Assembly: GCA_965219025.1 (NCBI GenBank)
Contig: OZ244716.1
Span: 7,812-71,811 of the forward strand
Direction: 5' to 3'
DNA from: Dehalococcoidia bacterium
GTDB taxonomy: Bacteria > Chloroflexota > Dehalococcoidia > Lucifugimonadales > UBA2985
Length of the DNA stretch: 64,000 nucleotides
Translations under genes and position numbers: made by a program
In this document: positions 21,888 through 29,537 of the stretch, piece after piece
Numbering within the stretch: position 1 is the first letter of the stretch
Layout: each line of letters begins with the position of its first letter
Notes under the pieces: model-generated
Database searches by the model: none
Seen by the model: only the letters and a program-made list of their open reading frames with translations
Told to the model about the DNA's origin: nothing

Positions 21888-22559
21888 ATGATAAGGATTG
21901 CTGCACTCGTAGCGTTGATGGGCGGCCTGGCGGCCGGAGGCCTTGTGACAATGCTCGTCTTGCTATTCGTTGCACGCGCGTGGTGGAGCACACCCTTCGA
22001 GGTCCTTGGATTCGGAGGCGCGCCGGAGCAGCCCATACCATTCCCGCATACCGTTCACGCCGGACTCGGCGACCTGCTGGACGAAGACGGCAATGTCGTG
22101 ACCTACGCCGACGGGCAGGCCAAGACCGCCCTCGGACTGGACTGCACCTACTGCCACCGCAACGTGGACAAGGGCGCGGCTGCTTCCGTTCCGCCCGTGG
22201 AGCAGTGCATCTTCTGCCACAAGGCCGTGCAGGAGGGCGAGGACAACCCGCTTCCCGGGTTGACCAACCTCCTGAGCGCATGGGAGAACAAGGACCCCGT
22301 CGTTTGGGAGCGTGTGCACCGGCTGCCGGACAGCGTCCGGTTTGTGCACGAGGCCCACATCCGCTACTTTACGCAGCAGGGCAATGTGCTGCCGTCCGGC
22401 GAGCAGGCCATGGTCGCCGCCAACGTGTGCTCCACCTGCCACGGCGACGTTGCCGCGATGGCCGAGGTCGAGCAGGTGCGAAGCCTCAAGATGGGCGACT
22501 GCGTGGACTGCCACCGGGACTACGGAGCCCCCACAGACTGCACTACGTGTCACTACTAA
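21888..22559 (+). CDS. actA: Membrane-anchored pentaheme cytochrome c (ActA/QrcA-like)
   Basis: Five CxxCH motifs (CTYCH, CIFCH, CSTCH, CVDCH, CTTCH); PIPFPHTVH; N-terminal TM anchor. Confidence 0.9.
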   Translation: MIRIAALVALMGGLAAGGLVTMLVLLFVARAWWSTPFEVLGFGGAPEQPIPFPHTVHAGLGDLLDEDGNVVTYADGQAKTALGLDCTYCHRNVDKGAAASVPPVEQCIFCHKAVQEGEDNPLPGLTNLLSAWENKDPVVWERVHRLPDSVRFVHEAHIRYFTQQGNVLPSGEQAMVAANVCSTCHGDVAAMAEVEQVRSLKMGDCVDCHRDYGAPTDCTTCHY

Positions 22560-22574
22560 GGATTGCATAGCGTC

Positions 22575-24833
22575 ATGGGAATAACGAGAAGACAGTTCCT
22601 CAAGTGGTCAGGTGTTTCAGCCGTAGGGGCCGTGGCCTTCAATGGCTGTCTCATACCGGAACAGGAGCTCCAGATAGAGAGTCCGGTCTTCCTGCCCGAG
22701 GACCTTGTCAGCGGCATCGACAACTGGTATGCCACGCTCTGCCGGCAGGACCCGGAGGGCTGTGGCATCATCATCCGTGTAGTGGAGGGCCGCGCAAAGA
22801 AGGTCGAAGGCAACCCGGACTACCCGCTCAACCAGGGCAAGCACCACGCAAGGAGCGAGGCGGGCCTGCAGGCCCTGTACCACCCGGACCGGATCAGTGA
22901 GCCTCTCGCTCGCGAGGGAGATGCTCACGTCCCCATCTCGTGGGAGGAGGCGCGCAGGCGCATCGCGGACCGCATGAACGGCCTGTCGGACAGGAGCAGG
23001 TTCCTTCTGGTGACGCAGCCATTGCGCGGACACCAGGCGCTGCTGGCCAGCGAGTTCGTGAAGGCGTACGGCGGCAGGTCGATGGCCTACGAGACGCTTG
23101 AGCAGGTGACGCTCCGCCGCGCCATCCTCGAGGTATTCGAGCAGGAGAGGATTCCGGCATTCGACATCGAGAACTGCAAGTACCTGCTGTCCTTTGGGGC
23201 GGACTTCCTGTCCACGTGGCTTTCGCCGGTGAAGTTCTCACGAGGATACGGCGAACTGCGACAGGGCAGCTCTCATAGAGGGCTTCACGTTCAGGTCGAC
23301 CCGCGCTTCTCCATGACGGCAGCAAACGCCGACGAGTGGGTGCCCGTCAAGCCGGGCGGCGAGGGCGTCCTGGCAATGAGCATGGCATACGTGATAATGC
23401 GCGACGGGCTGGGAGACTCGGCGGCCGCGAACGCTCTCACCGGGGGTGGCGGACACGAGGCCCTTGTGGCATTCAGCCCGGACAACCAGCAGGTGCGTGA
23501 CGCTACCGGCGTTGAGCCTGGACGGATCGAGGAGCTGGCCCACGCATTCGCTGATCCCCACAACCGGCCGGTGATGGCCATCGGGGGCGGCTCCGCAGGC
23601 GCGCACACAAGCGGACTCTTCAACCTTAAGGCCATCTACTCGCTCAATCTGCTCGTGGGCAGCGTGAACACGCCGGGCGGCGTTCTCTTCAACCCGGCGC
23701 CGCCACTGCCTGAGCTTGCCACCACTGACGTTATGGCTATGGGCTCTCCCGCGTCCTTTGGCGAGTGGAGGGACATGGACCGCCCGCAGGTGCTCATGGT
23801 CCGGGGCGTGAACCCCGTTCACGGCCTGCCGGAGAGCGCCAACTTCCGCGCGGCCGTGGAGGGCGCGGAGTTTGTCGTGGCCTTCTCAAGCTTCATGGAC
23901 GAGACCGCGGCCCTGGCGGACCTGGTTCTACCTGAGCATACCTACCTTGAGGACTGGGGTGACGATATCCCGGATCCGGCACCGGGCTACCAGGTAATCG
24001 GGCTACAGCAGCCGGTGGTCAGCCCGTTCCATGATGGCACCCGGGGCTTCGGCGACGAGCTGCTCGTGCTGGGCAGGGCGCTTGGCCTGGACCTGGACTC
24101 CAGGTTGGGACTGGCAAACGTGACCGATCCGTCGATGCAGGATCTGCTGCGACGCGGGGCAGACCAGCTGTGGCAGATGGACCGCGGCTCGGTGAGGGCA
24201 TCGTCCTTCGACGGCTTCTGGAATGGCGTACTCCAGAGAGGCGGCTGGTGGGATACCGCGGCCATCGACAACAGCGGCGTCAGGAACATCAAACAGCTCG
24301 ACACCGCCTGGCCGGACATCTCCTTCAGCGACGCGCCGGGAGGGCGTTCATTCAACCTGCTCCCCTTCGCGTCCAACTCGATAGGGGACGGGCATCTGGC
24401 ACACCTGCCGTGGCTCCAGGCAACGCCCGACCCAATCACGACGATAGTCTGGCACACGTGGATCGAAATGAACTCCAGGACGGCGGAGGAGATGGGGCTG
24501 AGCAAGGGAGACATGGTGGTGGTCACCGCGGAGGGCACCCGCACGGTGGAGGTGCCGGTGTACCCGCACCCCGGGGTGCCGCCGGACACGGTGTCCATGC
24601 CCATAGGCCAGGGCCATTCGGCGTTCGGGCGATACGCAGAGGGAGTCGGCCAGAACACCTTGGCGCTTCTGGCTGGTTTGACGGACGGTGCGACGGGTGC
24701 GCTGGCGTGGGCAGCTACGAAGGTTCGTGTGGTAAAGTCGAACCTGAGTATTGACATTCCGCGGTTCGAGGGCAACCAGTTCGCAGAAGAGGCCGACGAG
24801 CAGGGCATCATCAAGGTGACCAAGCCGGAGTAG
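22575..24833 (+). CDS. Tat-exported molybdopterin-oxidoreductase-like subunit (ActB1/QrcB-like)
   Basis: ITRRQFLK Tat motif ending AFNG|C; VEGNPDYPLNQGK, LSFGADFLSTWLSPV, LQATPDPITTIVW. Confidence 0.85.
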   Translation: MGITRRQFLKWSGVSAVGAVAFNGCLIPEQELQIESPVFLPEDLVSGIDNWYATLCRQDPEGCGIIIRVVEGRAKKVEGNPDYPLNQGKHHARSEAGLQALYHPDRISEPLAREGDAHVPISWEEARRRIADRMNGLSDRSRFLLVTQPLRGHQALLASEFVKAYGGRSMAYETLEQVTLRRAILEVFEQERIPAFDIENCKYLLSFGADFLSTWLSPVKFSRGYGELRQGSSHRGLHVQVDPRFSMTAANADEWVPVKPGGEGVLAMSMAYVIMRDGLGDSAAANALTGGGGHEALVAFSPDNQQVRDATGVEPGRIEELAHAFADPHNRPVMAIGGGSAGAHTSGLFNLKAIYSLNLLVGSVNTPGGVLFNPAPPLPELATTDVMAMGSPASFGEWRDMDRPQVLMVRGVNPVHGLPESANFRAAVEGAEFVVAFSSFMDETAALADLVLPEHTYLEDWGDDIPDPAPGYQVIGLQQPVVSPFHDGTRGFGDELLVLGRALGLDLDSRLGLANVTDPSMQDLLRRGADQLWQMDRGSVRASSFDGFWNGVLQRGGWWDTAAIDNSGVRNIKQLDTAWPDISFSDAPGGRSFNLLPFASNSIGDGHLAHLPWLQATPDPITTIVWHTWIEMNSRTAEEMGLSKGDMVVVTAEGTRTVEVPVYPHPGVPPDTVSMPIGQGHSAFGRYAEGVGQNTLALLAGLTDGATGALAWAATKVRVVKSNLSIDIPRFEGNQFAEEADEQGIIKVTKPE

Positions 24834-24867
24834 CAGAACCTGAGCAGAGGACCGGCAGGAGAATGGT

Positions 24868-28403: not shown

Positions 28404-28419
28404 TCCCCGGAGGTCCAGA

Positions 28420-28947
28420 ATGGCCAACAAGAACGTACTAGGACTATTCGACAACGCGGACACGGCGGCCGACGCCACCGACGTCCTCATGGAGGCGGGA
28501 TGCGCGCAGGAGGACTTCGACGTCCTGACCGGCAGCCCGTACCCTGACGGCGCTTTCGGCGAAAAGACGCCCGTTCACCACATCTACGTATTCCCCCTCA
28601 TAGGCGCGCTCATGGGCCTGAGCGTGGCCTTCCTGCTGACCTCCGGCACCCAGATCGCCTACCCCATAGTTACAGGCGGAAAGCCCATCCTCTCGTTCCC
28701 CGCCATGACCATCATCTCCTACGAGGGTACGCTTCTGGGCGCGGTCATCTTCACGATCCTGGGCATCATCTTCGAGTCCCGCCTGCCCAGGCCACGGCTC
28801 GACCCCTACGACCCTCGAATCACCGAAGGCTACATCGGTCTGCTGGTCACGTGCCCCGAGGAGCGTCTCGACGCGGTCGATCAGGCGCTCCGGCGCGGCA
28901 AGGCGGTGGACGTAATCCACGAGGGAGGCCGCTCATTTCAGGCATGA
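28420..28947 (+). CDS. actD: ActD (DUF3341) membrane subunit
   Basis: LGLFD, SPYP, GGKP..S.PA...I.YEGTLL, YDPRITEG. Confidence 0.85.
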   Translation: MANKNVLGLFDNADTAADATDVLMEAGCAQEDFDVLTGSPYPDGAFGEKTPVHHIYVFPLIGALMGLSVAFLLTSGTQIAYPIVTGGKPILSFPAMTIISYEGTLLGAVIFTILGIIFESRLPRPRLDPYDPRITEGYIGLLVTCPEERLDAVDQALRRGKAVDVIHEGGRSFQA

Positions 28948-29537
28948 TGACGCCCATGTCTAGAATACTCAGACTGCGCATGACAATTGCCGTAGCGGCA
29001 CTGCTGCTGACACTTGTCGCGGCGGGATGTCTGCCCCTTGGCCGGGGCGCATACCCGTTGGACATCTTCGCGGAGATGCACTACACCCAAATGTACAAGT
29101 CGCAGGAACCGCCGCGGCTATATCCGGCGCCGGGCGCAGTGCCGTTCATGGCGGTTGGCGACGGAGCGCTCACGGTTCCTGACGCGTCGCCTGCGATCAG
29201 CGCGGCTACCGCTGAGAAGGGCAGGGCGCTGTACGCCGTGAACTGCGTCGTCTGTCACGGCCAGGCCGGCACCGGCGACGGCCCAATGCGCGGGCACCTG
29301 GAGAGGATTGCGGGCGCTCATGCCCTCGTCCCGGCTGACGTAACCGGTGCCGGAACGGTGGCTGCCACAGACGCGGACCTCGTAACATTCATAGGCGGCG
29401 GGGGACGCATCGGGAACGCACTCCGGCAGGCCGGGCAGGTTGCCAACGCTCCAACTATGCCAGTGTTCAACAAGCTGTTGACCGAAGAGGAGCTTTGGAG
29501 CCTGGTTCGCTACCTGCGCGAACTGCAGGGCCAGTAG
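28944..29537 (+). CDS. actE: ActE-like monoheme cytochrome c lipoprotein
   Basis: Lipobox LVAAG|C, EMHY.QMYKSQE, a single CVVCH, distal Met in TMP. Start ATG 28944 overlaps the actD stop. Confidence 0.85.
   Translation: MMTPMSRILRLRMTIAVAALLLTLVAAGCLPLGRGAYPLDIFAEMHYTQMYKSQEPPRLYPAPGAVPFMAVGDGALTVPDASPAISAATAEKGRALYAVNCVVCHGQAGTGDGPMRGHLERIAGAHALVPADVTGAGTVAATDADLVTFIGGGGRIGNALRQAGQVANAPTMPVFNKLLTEEELWSLVRYLRELQGQ

Follow-up and report, generated by a model that had tools for sequence, protein, structure and literature searches.

Canonical examples of alternative complex III (ACIII) are those of Rhodothermus marinus (6F0K), Flavobacterium johnsoniae (6BTM), Roseiflexus castenholzii (6LOD) and Chloroflexus aurantiacus (8K9E), encoded by clusters of the type actABCDEF(G/H). 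Composition and gene order vary between phyla (PMC12342949; PMC5317091), and gene order serves in ACIII as a convention more than as a strict criterion, with other orders published, such as actABCEED (PMC5317091). The activity that defines ACIII is that of a quinol:cytochrome c/HiPIP/auracyanin oxidoreductase. A form in which B is divided between two genes is recognised as well: ACIII has been sought as 'actABCDEF or actAB1B2CDEF' (PMC5928083), and iron oxidisers (PMC4643136) and Nitrospirales (PMC12342949) likewise have a split B. ACIII clusters lying apart from oxidase genes have already been reported (PMC9386147) and are thought to serve periplasmic acceptors (PMC9386147; PMC5317091).

Qrc (QrcABCD) of sulfate reducers belongs with ACIII to the same clade of cofactor-less molybdoenzyme relatives. 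As reportedly described by Venceslau in 2010, it has a hexaheme QrcA, lacks ActD, ActE and a second NrfD-like subunit, and runs towards quinone reduction. Here we analyze a gene cluster in a 64-kb stretch of DNA (the window) from a marine, SAR202-like member of the Dehalococcoidia, a cluster that a first-pass annotation had read as a hybrid of ACIII and Qrc. We consider it quite likely that positions 21521-29537 form one operon encoding a Dehalococcoidia/SAR202-type ACIII, an estimate that covers the menaquinol:cytochrome c role discussed below. A literature search found no paper describing this exact architecture.

Gene content and order

Seven genes occupy positions 21888-29537 on the + strand, with the content and order given by the first-pass annotation: pentaheme ActA, split ActB1 and ActB2, two adjoining NrfD-like proteins, ActD and monoheme ActE. 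The gene that follows, 3' of actE, encodes an MFS transporter (MFS_3, 29798-31066) and not an oxidase, also as described. The list of seven was right but incomplete, since it missed a conserved 96-aa ORF directly 5' of actA (21521-21811, + strand), and the transcription unit probably starts there rather than at 21888. Neighboring gene ends in the operon overlap or nearly abut. The first NrfD-like gene, which we call X, starts 8 nt before the end of the actB2 stop, and ActE most likely begins at the ATG of position 28944, with an ATGA overlap between this codon and the actD stop. Two of the eight genes carry 'hypothetical' as their sole annotation.

All 80 related loci fetched show the order small-A-B1-B2-X-C-D-E without exception, and it recurs in independently called contigs, so the juxtaposition is not due to chance. 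This order is neither actABCDEF nor actAB1B2CDEF. The cluster is present in at least 430 species-level genomes. In about 32 loci the cytochrome c maturation genes ccmH and ccmF and a thioredoxin gene lie 3' of actE, and one locus (L081) has an additional 160-aa cytochrome c downstream.

The 96-aa protein has two TM helices and the conserved motifs MDP..W..IPSL..GH(L/I)P..RWW. Its ORF is preceded by a purine-rich ribosome-binding site 5' of the ATG, has an orthologue directly 5' of actA in 66 loci, mostly separated from it by 3-76 nt, and was called independently in L083 and L084. The family comprises 246 clusters at 90% identity, all of 96-97 aa, all 'hypothetical' and all from Chloroflexi/Dehalococcoidia. 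Searches returned no Pfam match and no PDB homologue, ACIII chains included. The protein is a candidate lineage-specific accessory subunit or assembly factor.

Redox and quinol-site subunits compared with ACIII and Qrc

ActA (21888-22559, + strand, 223 aa) has an N-terminal TM helix and five CxxCH motifs, all five kept in 65/65 family members, and in the PDB it is matched best by ActA of 6lod, 8k9e and 6f0k. ActB1 (22563-24833, + strand, 756 aa) combines a twin-arginine signal with Molybdopterin and Molydop_binding domains (Pfam TAT_signal, Molybdopterin, Molydop_binding) and has no 4-Cys FS0 motif; it is a TAT-exported molybdopterin-oxidoreductase-like subunit, likely cofactor-less. ActB2 (24868-25635, + strand, 255 aa) contains 4Fe-4S dicluster domains, and its 14 cysteines follow the ActB pattern of a four-cluster-type iron-sulfur subunit (3x[4Fe-4S]+[3Fe-4S]). 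Asn156 replaces the 15th ActB FeS ligand, which in the CTYC motif is the second Cys; this position is Cys in 53 of 65 relatives and has changed from Cys to Asn in the window's own clade. ActB2 aligns full-length with the C-terminal domain of ActB (214 bits to 8k9e_B, 206 bits to 6f0k_B), and concatenated B1+B2 matches the fused ActB of 6btm, 6lod, 8k9e and 6f0k at about 290-316 bits. No Qrc chain was among the PDB matches of either B1+B2 or B2.

ActC (27027-28403, + strand, 458 aa) matches Pfam NrfD at 84 bits and the ActC chains of 6lod, 8k9e, 6f0k and 6btm at 257-295 bits, with 41-42% identity to Chloroflexia ActC. The quinol-site residues H139, S164, D169 and D253 (R. marinus numbering, as listed in PMC8076601) are kept in 69/69 ActC family members. 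The two-TM subunit ActD (28420-28947, + strand) matches PF11821 with 100 bits (cut-off 25.7), and its PDB matches are 6lod_D and 8k9e_D. In the monoheme cytochrome c lipoprotein ActE (28944-29537 within the ORF 28851-29537, + strand), the single CxxCH, Met172 and the lipobox Cys29 are all invariant. The ActE family profile aligns nearly full-length with R. marinus ActE (52.8 bits) and also matches ActE of Chloroflexus, Roseiflexus and F. johnsoniae (8k9e, 6lod, 6btm).

The locus shares with Qrc a multiheme cytochrome, separate molybdopterin-like and FeS subunits and an NrfD-like subunit, of which Qrc has one, and the best NCBIfam models of A, B1 and B2 are QrcA, QrcB and QrcC. Every Qrc match, however, falls below its equivalog cut-off (bits/cut-off: QrcA 50/180, QrcB 318/440, QrcC 239/400, QrcD 22/570), and the presence of ActD, ActE and two NrfD-like genes departs from the four-subunit, single-NrfD composition of Qrc. 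All subunits match solved ACIII best. Split B, which had been taken as a Qrc trait, is a published ACIII form, as is a cluster unlinked to oxidase genes; a hybrid of the two complexes is therefore not the best reading of this locus.

These comparisons also bear on the possibility that the complex works in reverse, passing electrons from periplasmic cytochromes to menaquinone, the reaction of Qrc in sulfate reducers and one already suggested for the ACIII of iron oxidisers. Besides the similarities to Qrc, such a role would find a precedent in the split-B ACIII of iron oxidisers, for which participation in uphill electron flow has been proposed (PMC4643136). We regard it as very improbable here, given the Qrc scores below cut-off, the additional subunits, the 41-42% identity of ActC to its Chloroflexia counterparts and its full quinol site. 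Pfam annotation of the window's large ORFs revealed no nearby hydrogenase, sulfate-reduction or iron-oxidation genes; the NAD-linked formate-dehydrogenase-like trio upstream (10095-15267) carries no periplasmic signal, and the hosts are described as aerobic heterotrophs (bioRxiv 10.1101/328013; PMC5596340; PMC10444878). The first-pass annotation had called the direction of electron flow unknown. This is formally true, but because ActC keeps all four residues of the R. marinus quinol site, quinol oxidation is the default.

The second NrfD-like subunit

X (25628-26983, + strand, 451 aa) lies between actB2 and actC and is the divergent member of the pair, as first proposed: a Pfam search returned no NrfD or other match. 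Its AlphaFold model (pLDDT 80, pTM 0.85) retrieved only ACIII chains with Foldseek, ActC at TM 0.77-0.80 and ActF at TM 0.62-0.73. Sequence scores of X are likewise higher against ActC than against ActF, so that where it sits in the complex is assumed. In profile similarity to ActF, X reaches 113 compared with 65-69 for ActC. A neighbor-joining tree of 268 columns, exposed to long-branch attraction, split ActC sequences from X+ActF at 99.5%. X is neither ActC nor canonical ActF, and judged by profile comparison and tree it appears to fall between the two.

One explanation of the atypical order would be a recent tandem duplication, with X a decaying or functionless copy of actC. X does adjoin actC, has no Pfam NrfD match and has lost the quinol-site histidine loop, the ActC His139 loop being deleted in 69/69 X family members. 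Yet X is intact in 80/80 loci and forms a discrete family of about 31 full-length clusters at 50% identity. It shares about as little identity with its own ActC (23.5%) as with that of R. marinus (25%), and it grouped with Dehalococcoidia ActC in 0/200 bootstraps. Invariant charged and aromatic residues remain, with R119, E122 and D191 kept in 69/69 family members and R114, D253 and E338 in 62-67 of 69, and the structure model is confident. Identity of X in distant loci is about 46%, compared with about 36% for ActE, and X evolves no faster than ActA or ActB1. The intact loci, the discrete family, the tree and the conserved residues leave a decaying duplicate with almost no probability, and we treat it as refuted for practical purposes.

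The complex shares with canonical ACIII the pentaheme ActA with its N-terminal helix, the TAT-signal molybdopterin-like and FeS modules of ActB, the quinol-site residues of ActC, ActD, the monoheme lipoprotein ActE and a second ten-helix NrfD-like subunit without a quinol site. It differs in that B is two genes, and X is more ActC-like in sequence and fold than ActF and stands before actC instead of after actE. ActG and ActH are absent, an unrelated 96-aa two-helix gene comes first, and no oxidase genes are adjacent. The actAB1B2CDEF clusters of iron-oxidising Beta- and Zetaproteobacteria also have separate actB1 and actB2, seven core genes and an oxidase that is not necessarily adjacent, but they keep the canonical C-D-E-F order and a recognisable ActF, and their ActB1 reportedly has a CX2CX3CX27C [4Fe-4S] motif (PMC4643136) that is absent from ActB1 here. 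Nitrospirales actAB1B2CDE shares the split B and the lack of an annotated canonical ActF or ActG; there a bd-like oxidase follows the cluster (PMC12342949), unlike here. Caldithrix actABCEED is another 'ActF-less' module (PMC5317091). From the published annotation of such modules, the present cluster is set apart by its unannotated second NrfD-like gene between B2 and C.

An intermediate paralogue (P0195) was found 5' of another ActC. In a tentative and rather doubtful joint reading, the adjoining X-actC pair would preserve the original tandem duplication behind the two NrfD-like subunits of ACIII, X and P0195 representing a 'proto-ActF' that has diverged slowly. On that view the Dehalococcoidia complex would be intermediate in evolution between canonical ACIII and the Psr/Qrc type of complex, with its single NrfD and split B; it would have a previously unrecognised small subunit of its own and would be the main 'missing complex III' of the globally abundant SAR202 clade.

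Proposed function and hosts

Searches of the 64-kb window for heme-copper oxidase, CuA, cytochrome bd and Rieske motifs found none, and by Pfam annotation its other large ORFs are housekeeping genes only, with no linked terminal reductase. Nor was an oxidase found within 10 kb in any of the 80 related loci, which upholds the earlier claim of an unlinked complex. Published accounts portray SAR202 and sponge Chloroflexi as respiring aerobically, with complexes I and II, a cytochrome c oxidase and an ATP synthase, and complex III is absent from the component lists (bioRxiv 10.1101/328013; PMC5596340). By analogy with characterised ACIII, the complex is most likely a menaquinol:cytochrome c oxidoreductase that supplies an oxidase whose genes lie elsewhere. 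More broadly, it probably acts as a menaquinol:cytochrome c (or other periplasmic acceptor) oxidoreductase that stands in for bc1 in an aerobic chain.

In a mechanism modeled on the solved ACIII structures, menaquinol would be oxidised at the P-side site of ActC. Electrons would pass to the iron-sulfur chain of ActB2 and from there to the five hemes of membrane-anchored ActA; ActB2 would be co-exported with ActB1, its cofactor-less partner with the TAT signal, and held by it. Electrons would leave via ActA, lipid-anchored monoheme ActE or both, to a cytochrome of the c type or to a cytochrome c oxidase whose genes lie elsewhere in the genome. X, with ten helices, a lost quinol site and several buried charged residues kept, may pair with ActC in the membrane and take the role of ActF as structural partner and possible second proton path, with ActD beside X and ActC. 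The 96-aa two-helix protein would join as an accessory subunit or act in assembly.

Another possibility is that a quinol-oxidising ACIII delivers electrons through ActA/ActE to non-oxygen terminal reductases, such as NosZ, nitrite reductases or other periplasmic or extracellular acceptors. The 0/80 count of linked oxidases is compatible with this, as are the periplasmic acceptors proposed for oxidase-distant ACIII (PMC9386147; PMC5317091), the napAB and nosZ genes carried by some SAR202 genomes (PMC5596340; PMC10444878) and the extra cytochrome c of L081. We nevertheless think it unlikely, as published descriptions make the lineage mainly aerobic and give it a cytochrome c oxidase (bioRxiv 10.1101/328013; PMC5596340), and no reductase gene is linked to the cluster; in any case the partner would differ and the mechanism would be the same.

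The preferred reading, an ACIII supplying an oxidase encoded elsewhere, makes the locus a lineage-wide variation on a known enzyme and not a new kind of machine, and the picture of ACIII is unchanged. What is unusual is the nature and position of X and the conserved 96-aa gene upstream; split B and separation from oxidase genes were already known. For ACIII specialists, the cluster is a natural variant whose second NrfD-like subunit lies much nearer to ActC than canonical ActF does, bearing on the origin of the ActC/ActF pair and on the residues needed for the proposed proton pathways, and it flags an unannotated candidate subunit in the 96-aa protein. In the dark ocean and in sponge microbiomes, SAR202 and related Dehalococcoidia rank with the most abundant bacteria. 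Genome descriptions in the literature give them complexes I, II, IV and V and no complex III (bioRxiv 10.1101/328013; PMC5596340; PMC10444878), and this cluster is the obvious candidate for the missing link in their respiratory chain.

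Gene content of the operon and assignment of its subunits

The seven genes of alternative complex III (ACIII) in the window are tightly packed and read in one direction on the + strand, as established by ORF listing and family scans. ActA (21888-22559, +; 223 aa) has one N-terminal TM helix and five CxxCH motifs, B1 (22563-24833, +; 756 aa) has a twin-arginine signal with Molybdopterin and Molydop_binding domains, and B2 (24868-25635, +; 255 aa) has 4Fe-4S dicluster domains. These are followed by X (25628-26983, +; 451 aa), a polytopic membrane protein without a Pfam match, and by ActC (27027-28403, +; 458 aa; Pfam NrfD), ActD (28420-28947, +; 175 aa; PF11821, 100 bits) and ActE (28944-29537, +; 197 aa), a monoheme cytochrome c whose start ATG overlaps the actD stop. 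An MFS_3 transporter gene (29798-31066) lies beyond a gap of 260 nt after actE.

When GTDB species were scanned with one genome each, at least 430 stretches encoded an X relative; 80 of these were taken with 10-kb flanks as the relative set. All named relatives are MAGs of Chloroflexota, Dehalococcoidia or the "SAR202 cluster", and X itself is 100% identical to a protein on the 1.98-Mb chromosome OZ252018.1 of a Dehalococcoidia MAG (L001), where identity for the remaining genes of the cluster is 97-100%. The order A-B1-B2-X-C-D-E is kept in every sufficiently long locus of the 80 (tblastn with the window proteins). Identity to the window in distant loci is roughly 66% for ActC and B2, 56% for ActD, 49% for B1, 46% for X and ActA, and 36% for ActE; since its values are similar to theirs, X is as constrained as ActA and B1. 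Insertions were also observed: a luciferase-like monooxygenase gene (346 aa; approximately 13393-14433) lies between actD and actE in L025, L027, L028, L042 and L043, and in L068, L073 and L079 actB1 and actB2 are separated by an additional gene of about 234 aa.

In searches against solved structures, ACIII chains were the best match for every subunit. ActC matched four ActC chains with 266-295 bits and concatenated B1 and B2 matched four fused ActB chains with 291-316 bits, while B2 alone gave full-length matches of 199-214 bits with the ActB cysteine pattern present. ActA and ActD matched ActA and ActD chains, respectively, and the ActE family profile aligned nearly full-length to R. marinus ActE and also matched the other three ActE chains. 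Family-wide conservation extends to the ten heme cysteines of ActA, to Met172, lipobox Cys29 and the heme motif of ActE, and to 14 cysteines of B2, which supports functional cofactor sites in the three proteins. B1 is without the four-cysteine FS0 motif, in keeping with the cofactor-less B1 domain of ACIII.

One ligand position departs from this pattern in part of the family. The ActB FeS-ligand motif "CTYC" has its second Cys at residue 156 of ActB2 (25333-25335), where the window encodes Asn; across 65 family members this position is Cys in 53, Asn in 11 and Asp in one. Therefore, one [4Fe-4S] cluster in the sub-clade of the window has just three Cys ligands, and could either be a second cluster of the [3Fe-4S] type or be completed by a ligand other than Cys. 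At the N-terminus of ActB1 (22563-22650), Cys29 follows the twin-arginine motif in a lipobox-like AFNGC (FKAC or FQAC in relatives), and 96% of the family has this Cys. In these monoderm bacteria ActB1 is possibly a lipoprotein exported by the TAT route.

The first-pass annotation had described the gene content and order correctly in every item. Its interpretation stands in part, and the reading of the operon as a hybrid between ACIII and the menaquinone reductase Qrc is not supported. QrcA, QrcB and QrcC were the best NCBIfam models for the A and B subunits, each far under its cut-off; because no Qrc model reaches its cut-off and the operon has both ActD and ActE, we reject the hybrid label. 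Its gene list also left out a conserved 96-aa gene (21521-21811) upstream of actA. The split of actB is a recognised standard form of ACIII: a survey looked for "actABCDEF or actAB1B2CDEF" (PMC5928083), and iron oxidisers have ACIII with split actB1/actB2 (PMC4643136). Other variants include actAB1B2CDE in Nitrospirales, where ActF and ActG were not annotated (PMC12342949), and the order actABCEED in Caldithrix (PMC5317091). What sets the present operon apart is X, by its nature and its position, together with the extra leader gene.

X and ActC, two NrfD-like proteins

We aligned 69 X/C pairs to four ActC references and compared the residues listed for R. marinus (PMC8076601). All 69 ActC family sequences retain His139, Ser164, Asp169 and Asp253 of the quinol site, and the family also retains nearly all proposed channel residues. 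In the X family the His139 loop is deleted in 69/69 and Ser164 and Asp169 are variable, while Arg119, Glu122 and Asp191 are invariant (69/69) and Arg114, Asp253 and Glu338 occur in 62-67 of 69. [quoted passage not shown]

X is not a canonical ActF, as judged from sequence scores, fold matches and its discreteness as a family. In single-sequence and profile searches it scored 84 and 140 bits against ActC over the full length versus 58 and 60 bits against ActF over the second half only. Its AlphaFold model (pLDDT 80, pTM 0.85) matched only ACIII chains in Foldseek, with TM values of 0.77-0.80 for ActC and 0.62-0.73 for ActF. An exhaustive search of 1.84 billion representatives separated X family members, which score 279 bits or more on the X profile but no more than 180 on the ActC profile, from the next-best proteins, all of which are ActC-like except the ambiguous library protein P0195. 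Many of the ActC-like library proteins (P0185, P0189, P0197, P0203, P0210, P0238, P0258, P0259 and others) are 620-700 aa in length, 150-250 aa longer than ActC, which suggests fusions of ActC with another module.

Profile-profile comparison places X between the ActC and ActF families. The hhalign scores of X were 380 against Dehalococcoidia ActC, 254 against reference ActC and 113 against the C-terminal half of ActF; against ActF, Dehalococcoidia ActC scored 69 and reference ActC 65, all ActF comparisons being made with C-terminal ActF fragments that cover the second half of the protein only. In a neighbour-joining tree (Poisson distances, 268 well-occupied columns, 200 bootstraps) X and ActF were each monophyletic at 100%. 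All ActC sequences, from Dehalococcoidia, the references and diverse others, were split from X, P0195 and ActF at 99.5%, in a distance-based analysis in which long-branch attraction between X and ActF is possible. X grouped with Dehalococcoidia ActC in 0% of bootstraps, and it is only 23.5% identical to its own neighbour ActC and 25% to R. marinus ActC. On the pairwise identities, the discreteness of the family and the tree, we reject a recent duplicate or pseudogene of actC.

P0195 is a 480-aa NrfD-like protein (L082, 409-1851; Logan SRR24490440) with about equal X and ActC profile scores. It is encoded on a 3-kb contig of 67% GC, directly 5' of an ActC and 3' of a gene for a weakly ActE-like cytochrome; therefore, a second NrfD-like gene right before actC also occurs outside the X family proper. 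P0195 may belong to a lineage intermediate between ActC, X and ActF. The most divergent member of the X family, P0163 (L081), has the same B2-X-C-D-E order. Because X and actC are adjacent, X is intermediate in character and P0195 presents a similar case, the pair could be read as a preserved ancestral tandem duplicate, an origin which we consider rather improbable.

A conserved leader gene upstream of actA

When all proteins predicted in the 80 loci were clustered, a family of about 97 aa emerged whose gene lies directly 5' of actA in 66 of the loci. Its member in the window (21521-21811, +) ends 76 nt before actA and is preceded by a purine-rich ribosome-binding site; independent gene calls on L083 and L084 agree on this position, with identity as low as 29%. 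The protein has two hydrophobic helices, invariant MDP, W11, IPSL and P52, and a C-terminal RWW(I). A large protein database holds 246 clusters of this family, all of 96-97 aa, all "hypothetical" and with names from Chloroflexi or Dehalococcoidia only. We consider it a candidate accessory subunit or assembly factor of the ACIII unit. There is precedent for lineage-specific small ACIII subunits in ActG and in ActH of R. marinus (PMC5928083), and identity with either is rejected here for lack of a Pfam match and of similarity to any PDB chain, ACIII entries included.

A promoter-like site lies upstream of this gene (21366-21394), from a promoter and terminator scan whose counts in the window were close to chance expectation. 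Two genes without Pfam domains are divergent from the operon. One (21080-21349, -) encodes about 75-89 aa with little beyond a twin-arginine signal (RREFLTRAAIALGAA) and is conserved in 17 loci, with a similar family in 7 more; the other (20338-21075, -) encodes a putative lipoprotein of 245 aa and is conserved in 14 loci.

Genomic surroundings and proposed function

Motifs of heme-copper oxidase subunit I, CuA, CydA, Rieske and cytochrome b were sought in the window and in the 10-kb flanks of the 80 loci. No oxidase, CuA, CydA or Rieske motif turned up; the only matches were three weak ones in L040, L065 and L074 (one CcoN-like, two to the cytochrome b pattern PEW[YF]), none of them in the window. 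Pfam searches of the large ORFs of the 64-kb window gave no oxidase either. The earlier observation of no linked oxidase is thus borne out, and oxidases clearly do not stand beside the clusters in all relatives. ACIII away from oxidase genes is already known (PMC9386147). Downstream of actE, about 32 of the more distant loci have the cytochrome c maturation genes ccmH, ccmF and thioredoxin. The MFS gene, 260 nt downstream, can be dismissed as part of the system: it occurs only in the closest 14 loci, with ccm genes instead in distant relatives.

Upstream, synteny of an FdhA-like gene, mutS and mutL is common to distant relatives (L083 and L084). A NuoE-like (2Fe-2S thioredoxin-like), NuoF-like (FMN/NADH) and FdhA/NuoG-like molybdopterin trio (10095-15267, +) resembles an NAD-linked formate dehydrogenase or some related soluble module. 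The window also encodes glycosyltransferase-like membrane proteins, mutS, mutL, rplS, priA, CCA-adding enzyme, an ABC transporter, nrdR with ribonucleotide reductase, and histidine and purine biosynthesis genes; it gave no Rfam match and no tRNA. Two ORFs are without a Pfam match: 31186-31677 (+), between the MFS gene and rplS, with unusually low GC3 (0.57), and 46073-48010 (+), of 645 aa and GC3 0.69. A CAP12/Pycsar-type TIR-domain gene (60180-60992, -), of atypical GC3 (0.51 compared to about 0.8 elsewhere), adjoins herA (DUF87/HAS-barrel) and nurA genes (61177-63042, - and 63395-63994, -), and may form a small defence element gained by horizontal transfer.

The best-supported reading of these analyses is that the operon would encode a bona fide ACIII, a menaquinol:cytochrome c oxidoreductase. 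The quinol site would be in ActC, with X as its ActF-like partner, and electrons would pass, presumably in this direction, from B2 to ActA and on to ActE or an external acceptor; acceptor and oxidase would be encoded elsewhere in the genome. Genome papers on SAR202 and aerobic Dehalococcoidia list NADH dehydrogenase, succinate dehydrogenase, cytochrome c oxidase and ATP synthase, and do not list complex III. We found no description in the literature searched of ACIII in these organisms, of the X family or of the leader gene; the Refojo reviews of ACIII variation (2010, 2013) may contain one. The operon represents a further variation on an enzyme theme already known to vary, and its type, widespread across a clade that is ecologically dominant, is informative about how ACIII evolved.
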